Sequence record: PQ863255.1
DNA from: Escherichia phage Ptacy1532
DNA: 64,000 nucleotides
Direction: 5' to 3' (one strand)
Shown here piece by piece: positions 31,353-32,488 of this stretch (the stretch's first letter is position 1; the number at the start of each line of letters is the position of its first letter). A program made the position numbers and the translations under genes. The notes under the pieces were generated by a model. It was not told the DNA's origin, ran no database searches, and was given only the letters and a program-made list of their open reading frames with translations.

Positions 31353-31993
31353 GTAATCAATCCTTGAAACTCTTCTTTATTGAAATGCTTCTCTACCACA
31401 TACTCATACAGATCTTTTAACTCCGCATAACGACGGTAGAAAGTTCCGTGTGACATTCCAATAGTCTTCTGAATGTGGTCATGTGGGATTCCCAAGAAGA
31501 TCATTGAGAACATATTGGCTAACTTCTGAGTATCCATCGTATCACTTAAATCTTGGAAGAAATAGAAGATACGAGACTCCATGAATGGGTCACCAACAGA
31601 ATCTTGCTTATCCATAGCAATCTCTAAAGGACTATCCACCATATCTGGAGTACGGAACATATCAGCCTCTGGAATAGAGTAGATACGACGGTCCCCCACA
31701 GTCTGCCTATTTGAACGTATAGACCAGATAATATTCTTGACTCGATAAGTCATATGCTCTTGGTCTTTCTCATCCTCTAGGACTCTCTCATCCTGCTTAG
31801 CGAAGACAAATCTCCAAGCATTCAAGAGCACTTCCTGTGCCACATCTTCTGCTTCATGATAATCCCTGATATCATACATGAAGAACTTGTGAACCACTTT
31901 CCAGTTCACTTTATAAAACTCTTCATAGTTTGAGATATATTTAATAGGGATTCCATGAATGCGATATCTTGTAGGTGTTGTCTTCTTCGCCAT
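31349..31993 (-). CDS. ECF-like sigma factor (putative)
   Basis: 214 aa; [15 protein letters not shown] resembles sigma region 2; C-terminal [29 protein letters not shown] resembles region 4 HTH. Confidence 0.55.
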
Positions 31994-32253
31994 TATTCTA
32001 TTCCACGCTCTTTCAGAGCTTCTAACAATCCGTTGTGATTAGCAGCACATTCTGTGTACTGGTCCTGATACCACTCCAACGTAGTGGCTAGTGCCTTTCC
32101 TTGAGCACTCTCTAAAAGAGGTAGGTCAACCCTACATTCAGCTTTTAGGTTTGTTGGTAAGGGCATTGATTGCCTGCTGTTGTCGCTCGTTGAACAAGCT
32201 GACATACTCATCACTAGCGCAGACATTATAAAAAACTGGTTTAGTTTTCTCAT
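31993..32253 (-). CDS. o-spanin candidate (outer-membrane lipoprotein)
   Basis: ORF track 31993..32352; internal Met gives [20 protein letters not shown] signal with relaxed lipobox; embedded in +1 frame in the 3' end of the i-spanin candidate. Confidence 0.35.
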
Positions 32254-32488
32254 AATGCATCTCTTTATAAACAGTTTCCGTGTTCTTCTTCCAGTTAGAT
32301 AAACCGGTAAGAACTCTCTGAGCAACTTCATCAGCTGCCCTACTTCTTTCAATCTCTAACTCTTGTTGATGCTTTTCTTTATCCAGATTGTTACTGTCTG
32401 TTCTGTACTCATTAAACTTCATGCCACCAAAGAATACAAGAGCTGAAAAGATAACAAATCCTAGATTATCACTTAAAGTGCTTTGCAT
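32138..32488 (-). CDS. i-spanin candidate
   Basis: ORF track 32138..32512; start moved to ATG 32488 (GGAG SD, clear of terminator); N-terminal TM LGFVIFSALVFFGGM then helical periplasmic region. Confidence 0.4.
   Translation of the reverse strand: MQSTLSDNLGFVIFSALVFFGGMKFNEYRTDSNNLDKEKHQQELEIERSRAADEVAQRVLTGLSNWKKNTETVYKEMHYEKTKPVFYNVCASDEYVSLFNERQQQAINALTNKPKS

Follow-up and report, generated by a model that had tools for sequence, protein, structure and literature searches.

A gene pair of Escherichia phage Ptacy1532 predicted to encode an overlapped two-component spanin orthologous to gp39 and gp38 of phiEco32

In phage lambda, the spanin genes end the S-R-Rz/Rz1 cassette, and the genes lysB and lysC of phage P2 belong to one lysis cluster. 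The latter appear together with the remaining P2 lysis genes in Figure 1b of the spanin survey by Kongari et al. 2018 (PMC6139136), in which the closest described relatives of the system considered here are also found. In that survey, PhiEco32 is placed in the overlapped 'JH2' inner-membrane spanin (i-spanin) family together with NJ01, ECBP2, KBNP1711 and the Felix O1-like phages, and in a group of spanins of the outer membrane (o-spanins) composed of NJ01, ECBP2, KBNP1711 and PhiEco32 (PMC6139136). Its supplement lists the entry 'Phieco32 ovl -1', with genes at 35417-35768 and 35272-35533 that overlap by 116 nucleotides (nt) (PMC6139136). The present article concerns a gene pair at positions 31993-32488 (minus strand) of a stretch of 64,000 nt from Escherichia phage Ptacy1532 (sequence record PQ863255.1), the whole of which is referred to as the window. 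The gene lengths and the 116-nt overlap given for phiEco32 in the supplement are those of the window.

The pair very probably encodes a two-component spanin of the overlapped class, formed by the orthologues of phiEco32 gp39 and of gp38 once the latter is correctly started. The sequence elements of such a system are present, namely a protein with a predicted transmembrane domain (TMD), a lipoprotein of the signal peptidase II (SPII) type, an overlap of the two genes on the same strand, and cysteines in the predicted periplasmic parts of both products. A preliminary description of this DNA, made from its letters without database searches, had proposed an i-spanin/o-spanin pair, a reading that is strongly supported by homology, by the conserved architecture and by existing curation. 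The pair is in fact already known and ordinary for the phage genus: besides its treatment by Kongari et al. 2018, an i-spanin and an o-spanin are annotated at this locus in the GenBank records of phage Paul and others, and two recent Kuravirus papers also describe the spanin pair. The genome announcement of Paul makes no mention of lysis genes. Judged by its sequence, the window is Kuravirus phage DNA, as 2.5 kilobases (kb) at the locus are 99.8% identical to Escherichia phage vB_EcoP_WFI101126, and the same region shares 96-97% identity with SU10, Paul and other Kuravirus (phiEco32-like) podophages.

The first gene, at 32138..32488 on the minus strand, is an ATG-initiated open reading frame (ORF) of 116 amino acids (aa), the orthologue of phiEco32 gp39 and of CPT_Paul_036, whose product starts MQSTLSDNLGFVIFSALVFFGGMKF and in a longer reading runs MQSTLSDNLGFVIFSALVFFGGMKFNEY…NKPKS. 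Its predicted TMD comprises residues about 9-23, LGFVIFSALVFFGGM, encoded at 32420..32464 (minus strand), where the Kyte-Doolittle hydropathy, calculated in 15-residue windows, reaches its maximum of 2.23 at residue 9, and no second hydrophobic segment is found beyond it. For the Paul i-spanin, the GenBank note records a TMD at residues 8-23, predicted with TMpred. The single N-terminal transmembrane segment named in the preliminary description is thus retained, whereas the length stated there, 117 aa, becomes 116. The protein matches phrog_1152, 'Rz-like spanin', in PHROGs (E = 3.9e-37), and a Pfam scan (E <= 0.1) returned only a sub-threshold DUF7333 match. It contains one cysteine, Cys90. 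An i-spanin pattern of helix, linker and helix has been described. The AlphaFold2 (AF2) model, calculated from a 16-sequence alignment with a predicted local distance difference test (pLDDT) score of 64.6 and a predicted template modelling (pTM) score of 0.23, shows a helix at residues 3-81, a break at an invariant 11-residue segment and a helix at 93-111; at this low confidence, the predicted arrangement agrees loosely with that pattern and lends weak support to the i-spanin assignment. The periplasmic domain of the PhiEco32 i-spanin is given as 61% helical in the supplement of Kongari et al. (PMC6139136). Upstream of the gene, a Shine-Dalgarno sequence, GGAG (32494..32497, minus strand), lies 5 nt before the ATG; it is kept in all nine Kuravirus-type loci and is marked as the ribosome-binding site (RBS) of the i-spanin in the table of Kongari et al. 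(PMC6139136) and in the Paul annotation.

The second gene, at 31993..32253 on the minus strand, lies in the +1 frame relative to the first and encodes 86 aa, of which 67 would remain in the mature protein; by its sequence, it is the orthologue of CPT_Paul_035 and of phiEco32 phi32_38 once the latter is extended to its true start. A lipoprotein signal peptide (residues 1-19) followed by the Cys20 codon (32194-32196) occupies 32194..32253 (minus strand) according to a PROSITE-type lipoprotein rule, which bears out the lipoprotein signal that had been expected for the 86-aa ORF. The signal has R2 and K3, an uncharged h-region and the lipobox M-S-A-C with Cys20, followed by Ser-Thr; after Cys20 the protein reads STSDNSRQ…KERGIE. 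Since the +2 residue is Ser and not the Asp of lipoprotein localization (Lol) avoidance, sorting to the outer membrane is predicted. The GenBank note of the Paul o-spanin records an SpII signal cleaved at 19/20, to which LipoP gave a score of 18.03. Applied to all six frames of the 64 kb, the lipoprotein rule gave four matches, among which only the o-spanin ORF has a credible signal peptide, and the chance that such an out-of-frame lipoprotein start falls inside a given 350-nt gene is roughly estimated at about 0.007. The protein matches the unnamed phrog_2425 (E = 3.5e-27) and, weakly, phrog_456 'Rz-like spanin', with no match in the Pfam scan at E <= 0.1; neither spanin protein had an informative match when Pfam, NCBIfam, PADLOC and PDB were searched by sequence. 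Beyond the lipidated Cys20, it carries Cys40 and Cys69. Its hydrophobic peak is solely N-terminal and its C-terminus is polar, and a unimolecular spanin of the T1 gp11 type was rejected for this lack of a second hydrophobic peak. The PhiEco32 o-spanin is about 46% helical according to the supplement of Kongari et al. (PMC6139136).

The o-spanin ATG (32253) lies 235 nt 3' of the i-spanin ATG (32488), which places the second gene in the +1 frame. The stretch read in both frames, encoding the i-spanin C-terminus and the o-spanin N-terminus with a frame offset of 1, measures 116 nt (32138..32253, minus strand). These are 116 of the 261 nt of the o-spanin gene; the other 145 nt lie past the i-spanin stop, and the pair is therefore of the overlapped class (P2 lysB/lysC type) and not embedded. 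The supplement of Kongari et al. accordingly classes Phieco32 as 'ovl' (PMC6139136). An embedded architecture of the lambda Rz/Rz1 type was considered and rejected, the o-spanin frame not lying wholly inside the i-spanin gene. The preliminary description was correct in recognizing an 86-aa ORF in the +1 frame with a signal peptide and a relaxed lipobox, but its placement of that ORF within the larger gene, as a classic embedded Rz/Rz1 arrangement, does not hold, and the lambda Rz/Rz1 Pfam families are likewise not matched at threshold by the window proteins. Lambda Rz/Rz1 are of the same functional class and have the same two localisation signals, those of a type II inner-membrane protein and of an outer-membrane lipoprotein encoded in the +1 frame. 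They differ in that Rz1 is wholly embedded in Rz. Lambda Rz1 is also proline-rich, with a penta-proline stretch (Kongari et al., PMC6139136), and the o-spanin of the window has three prolines. P2 LysB/LysC share with the window pair the overlapped two-component class, in which the o-spanin gene starts inside the i-spanin gene and extends past it, but they belong to different families according to Kongari et al. (PMC6139136).

AT-rich phage DNA often contains short ORFs that lie out of frame, and the second ORF might be regarded as a chance open frame without a product. This explanation is effectively refuted by the substitution pattern, counted in nine Kuravirus-type sequences, and by the presence of full-length homologues in 253 phage records. 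Past the i-spanin stop, the remaining 145 nt of the o-spanin gene vary in a coding fashion, at 38 of 49 third positions as against 5 of 48 second positions. The ratio of nonsynonymous to synonymous polymorphism (pN/pS) is 0.161 in this o-spanin-only part (fraction of variable sites 0.43) and 0.146 in the i-spanin-only part (0.38), so that purifying selection acts on the single-frame parts of both genes. Within the overlap, pN/pS is 0.154 in the i-frame and 1.47 in the o-frame, and the fraction of variable sites, 0.216, is lower than in either flanking single-frame part. The i-frame dominates here, and the signal peptide is kept in character, not in sequence.

The conservation of the pair was followed in 13 loci, comprising Kuravirus members, Nieuwekanaalvirus EP335, an 88-kb IMG/VR contig, Sashavirus Sergei, Felixounavirus Mushroom and Gorganvirus Isfahan, and ranging from identical sequences down to 28-33% identity. 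By sequence comparison, the genes are the orthologues of gp39 and gp38 (phi32_39 and phi32_38) of phiEco32. The o-spanin of the window is 100% and the i-spanin 95.7% identical to those of Paul; relative to phiEco32 and to the KBNP1711-, ECBP2- and NJ01-type loci, the identities are 83-95% for the i-spanin and 77-99% for the o-spanin. For phiEco32 and Kuravirus orthologues such as those of Paul, the likeness (i-spanin 95%, o-spanin 99-100%) includes the lengths of 116 and 86 aa, the 116-nt overlap in the +1 frame, a terminator and an RBS upstream of the pair, and a middle-cluster site between the gene-40 homologue and the sigma factor gene. In all 13 loci, the first protein has an N-terminal TMD, the second ORF lies in the +1 frame with an overlap of 107-164 nt, and the o-spanin has a start rich in Lys and Arg, then a hydrophobic core, and a lipobox whose Cys is residue 20-24; two homologues miss the strict lipobox pattern, yet carry a canonical LSAC or ISAC. 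A cysteine near i-spanin residue 90 and one near o-spanin residue 70 (Cys69/70) are conserved in all homologues. The Mushroom i-spanin is recognized at 32% identity (E = 1.5e-11, in a search limited to the compared loci), and Felix O1-like i-spanins are matched at E of about 1e-7 in the full phage collection. A tblastn search located the i-spanin in 427 phage records; for the o-spanin the number is 253, and many of the matched genes carry a spanin annotation.

Among the distant relatives, Sergei gp65/gp66 (Sashavirus) and Mushroom gp091/gp092 resemble the window pair in both subunits (28-34% identity) and in the overlapped +1-frame layout, and they keep the i-spanin motif WKxNT...(E/R)(M/I)HxExT...F.N.C and a Cys-containing C-terminal motif of the o-spanin. 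They differ in their surroundings. In Sergei, the two homologues close a canonical lysis cassette, in the order holin/antiholin, endolysin, holin, i-spanin and o-spanin, which ties the family to lysis by gene context, while the Mushroom pair lies among early-type genes.

A different arrangement was observed in KM01 (PV018827; positions 1501-2541 of its locus L017), where a homing endonuclease gene (L017 1869-2327) is located between the i-spanin gene and the o-spanin body. The old o-spanin signal is still present in the +1 frame of the i-spanin, with the lipobox Cys lost and an early stop, and the o-spanin body has a new in-frame signal-like N-terminus, MIHWKELGVHIKKKLLSCTGILLAFSLSAC, with a canonical LSAC, overlapping the 3' end of the endonuclease gene. 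From these sequences, KM01 looks like an overlapped-to-separated conversion, comparable to that reported for T5 versus Shivani and phiR201 (Kongari et al., PMC6139136). AnnaHegner_Bas87 may resemble KM01 in its split arrangement.

The annotation of the second gene has been less uniform than its sequence. In RefSeq, phi32_39 is named 'Rz-like spanin', and phi32_38 is a 57-aa hypothetical protein starting at the internal Met30. The WFI101126 record likewise annotates the 57-aa form, losing the lipoprotein signal, and 57-aa hypothetical proteins are annotated at 3694-3867 of the NC_070991 locus (L002) and at 3274-3447 of the phiEco32 locus (NC_010324, L005). It could be argued from these RefSeq and GenBank records of the closest phages that the second gene truly starts at Met30 and yields a 57-aa soluble protein, the signal-like stretch being an untranslated by-product of the i-spanin frame and the larger gene the only real membrane protein. 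Gene callers also give the 57-aa form in most metagenomic clusters, as seen in a large protein collection, where four of six homologous clusters (P0002-P0005) consist of the truncated o-spanin; in addition, the Shine-Dalgarno sequence before Met1 is a weak GAG, and pN/pS in the overlap is the value of 1.47 already given for the o-frame. Met30, however, is not conserved, being Val in ECBP2-type loci and other residues in distant homologues, whereas Met1 with its Lys/Arg residues, hydrophobic core and lipobox Cys is found in every lineage, even at about 30% protein identity. Kongari et al. changed the ECBP2 and KBNP1711 o-spanin starts, or moved them upstream, to obtain a LipoP match (PMC6139136), and the split pair of KM01 has regained an in-frame signal peptide with an LSAC lipobox. 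A start at Met30 is therefore extremely unlikely, and the 57-aa annotation is a typical gene-caller error of the kind described by Kongari et al. On the other side of Met1, the o-spanin frame is open for 34 codons (32254-32355, minus strand), with an ATG 26 codons upstream, in the closest Kuraviruses; an N-terminally extended o-spanin is nevertheless unlikely, because the frame 5' of Met1 meets a stop after 1-4 codons in the IMG/VR contig (L011) and in Mushroom, both of which carry distant homologues.

The pair is far removed from the other candidate lysis genes of the window. A holin-like gene at 12778-12996 (plus strand), found by tblastn with the Paul holin at 85% identity, and the endolysin gene at 13026-13517 (plus strand), found with the Paul endolysin at 97% identity and matching lysozyme-family NCBIfam models, are located in the late structural cluster on the opposite strand. 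The distance of about 19 kb to the endolysin, and its opposite orientation, had been noted before and are confirmed. The minus-strand cluster that holds the spanin genes also contains DNA polymerase, nucleotide-metabolism genes and the sigma factor gene, and it is of the middle class, as determined experimentally in phiEco32 (PMC8948821) and as assigned by homology to coding sequences (CDS) 25-68 of SU10 (PMC4281155), not early as the preliminary description had it. Nor is the location unusual, as had been suggested, since the same layout is found throughout Kuravirus and unlinked spanins occur in T4-like and Felix O1-like phages. The vAPECPW12 paper gives the holin at 2191-2409, the endolysin at 2439-2930 and the o-spanin at complement 21764-21937, again about 19 kb apart. 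In Mushroom (Felix O1-like), the homologues lie among rIIB, RegB-like and polynucleotide kinase genes, and in Privateer, a related prolate podophage, about 12 kb separate the spanins and the endolysin. T4-like phages do not have their lysis genes in a cluster, and the T4 spanin genes PseT.3/PseT.2 are, like the window pair, separate from holin and endolysin (Kongari et al., PMC6139136); they differ in their separated architecture, and no evidence of sequence homology to them was found.

It was also observed that the only hydrophobic stretch of the 72-aa 'holin' encoded at 12778-12996 is N-terminal and precedes the residues VSA|VH. To judge by its sequence, this N-terminus resembles a cleavable signal peptide and not the TMD usual for a holin. 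A 2026 Kuravirus paper describes a holin homologue with a signal peptide only and no TMD, and the assignment of a true holin in Kuravirus phages seems tentative.

The position in a middle-class cluster, with holin and endolysin 19 kb away and encoded on the opposite strand, would also suit an envelope pair with a non-lytic role, in which a lipoprotein acting in superinfection exclusion or receptor masking (compare T5 Llp and Cor), together with an inner-membrane partner, is expressed before the late genes to protect the infected cell; no experimental lysis phenotype has been found for the spanin family. Such a role is very unlikely. Both homologues stand inside the holin-endolysin-holin-spanin cassette of Sergei, the overlap of a TMD protein and a lipoprotein in the +1 frame is a spanin signature that is kept in six phage groups, and unlinked spanin genes are known from the T4-like and Felix O1-like phages just mentioned. 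In addition, no other spanin candidate is present in the 64-kb window, with the genome ends lying outside it, and there are no PADLOC matches.

Several observations weigh against the assignment of the pair as a two-component spanin. Neither protein belongs to a Pfam or NCBIfam family at threshold, and no complementation, lipidation or deletion experiment on the spanin family was found in the literature, for which reason the spanin function rests on the signals, the architecture, homology and the cassette context of relatives. With Met at -3 in place of the canonical Leu, the lipobox is of a relaxed type, and the o-frame pN/pS of 1.47 in the overlap means that codon-level constraint is not seen for the signal peptide, on which selection can be recognized solely from the hydrophobicity and the Cys that are retained. 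The AF2 model of the i-spanin is of low confidence, as its pLDDT and pTM values indicate. The i-spanin N-terminus, MQSTLSD (32467-32488, minus strand), has one Asp and no positive residue and is net negative, so that the positive-inside rule alone does not yield an N-in topology; a net-negative N-terminus is also flagged for NJ01 and KBNP1711 in the table of Kongari et al. (PMC6139136), and Lys or Arg is present at the N-terminus of the distant homologues in Sergei, Mushroom and Isfahan. Finally, a strong terminator is located directly 5' of the i-spanin gene, which makes the predicted transcription route tentative.

For the two-component spanin, a mechanism can be drawn from the work on lambda Rz/Rz1 as summarised in Kongari et al. 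2018 (PMC6139136). The i-spanin would be anchored in the inner membrane via its N-terminal TMD, with a largely helical domain in the periplasm, while the o-spanin would be exported, would receive its lipid at Cys20 through the SPII pathway and would be directed to the outer membrane. The periplasmic parts of the two proteins would bind each other and form a bridge threaded through the peptidoglycan, and disulfides involving Cys90 of the i-spanin and Cys40 and Cys69 of the o-spanin would probably stabilise the complex. Once the murein has been destroyed by holin and endolysin, the complexes would collapse and fuse the inner and outer membranes, releasing the progeny. In the accepted model, intact murein restrains the spanin complexes until the endolysin acts. 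Because intact peptidoglycan would hold the complex in check, the spanin genes need no co-regulation with holin and endolysin, and early or middle synthesis would be harmless.

Upstream of the pair, an intrinsic-terminator hairpin at 32507..32524 (minus strand), with a 7-bp stem including five G-C pairs, then six U, and a folding energy of -13.9 kcal/mol, abuts the i-spanin RBS; it is conserved across the genus and annotated in WFI101126 and Paul. Between this terminator and the gene-40 homologue (32970-33716, minus strand) lies an HNH endonuclease gene (32547-32960, minus strand; HNH_3, E = 4.6e-13, with a NUMOD4 motif), a mobile insertion beside the spanin pair that is present in WFI101126 and SU10 and absent at that position in phiEco32 and Paul. 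The nearest upstream exact match to the gp36-type middle promoter consensus (PMC8948821), recognized by the phage sigma factor, is TAATGTATA at 33776..33784 (minus strand), before the gene-40 homologue, and over the surrounding 41 nt the sequence agrees exactly with the SU10 'middle promoter between CDS37 and CDS38'. When one mismatch was allowed, the scan for TAATGTATA found 20 sites as against 18.3 expected from shuffled sequences, which is no enrichment, and only the exact match coinciding with the published SU10 promoter was used. The spanin genes are probably transcribed from this gp36-type promoter by read-through of the terminator, with the gene-40 homologue between the promoter element and the pair.

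Downstream, the pair is directly followed by the gene for the phage sigma factor, a gp36 homologue (31349..31993, minus strand; phrog_1740, E = 5.5e-45, with a weak Sigma70_r2 match), as previously described, and the o-spanin stop and the sigma factor ATG share the sequence TAATG at 31991-31995. In phiEco32, gene 37, a macro-domain gene (Appr-1-p processing family), separates the o-spanin and sigma factor genes. It is precisely absent from the window (31985-32000, minus strand, versus positions 2780-3310 of the phiEco32 locus, L005) and also from WFI101126; the window thus differs from phiEco32 and Paul in lacking gene 37 and in carrying the HNH gene just upstream of the terminator. The ATGGC of the sigma factor gene stands where the ATGGC of gene 37 was, and it is because gene 37 is absent that the o-spanin stop overlaps the sigma factor start. 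In phiEco32, a sigma-70 promoter for the sigma factor gene is predicted inside gene 37 (PMC8948821), and the only recognisable signals upstream of the spanin-sigma unit of the window are the terminator and, 1.3 kb further, the sigma-dependent promoter. It is conceivable, though rather unlikely, that the loss of gene 37 has fused the spanin pair with the sigma factor gene in such a way that sigma factor synthesis is coupled in transcription and translation to the o-spanin frame, the spanin genes doubling as a leader that sets sigma factor levels. A separate observation is a sigma-70-like sequence, ATGAGA-17 nt-TATAAT (10/12), within the overlap at 32225-32253 (minus strand), the first hexamer of which begins with the ATG of the o-spanin; the sigma factor gene, but not the o-spanin start, would be contained in a transcript made from this site. 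The sigma-70 scan gave 15 sites as against 15.7 in shuffled sequence, and this site may be due to chance and is not claimed as a promoter.

For the phages concerned, the recognition of the 86-aa o-spanin is the correct re-annotation of a 57-aa 'hypothetical protein', one previously made by Kongari et al. 2018 and in the Paul record. The spanin family is common to Kuravirus, Felix O1-like and 9NA/Sasha-like phages, and its presence in the window has little significance beyond annotation. The position of the pair in a middle cluster fits the accepted view that spanins restrained by peptidoglycan need no late timing.

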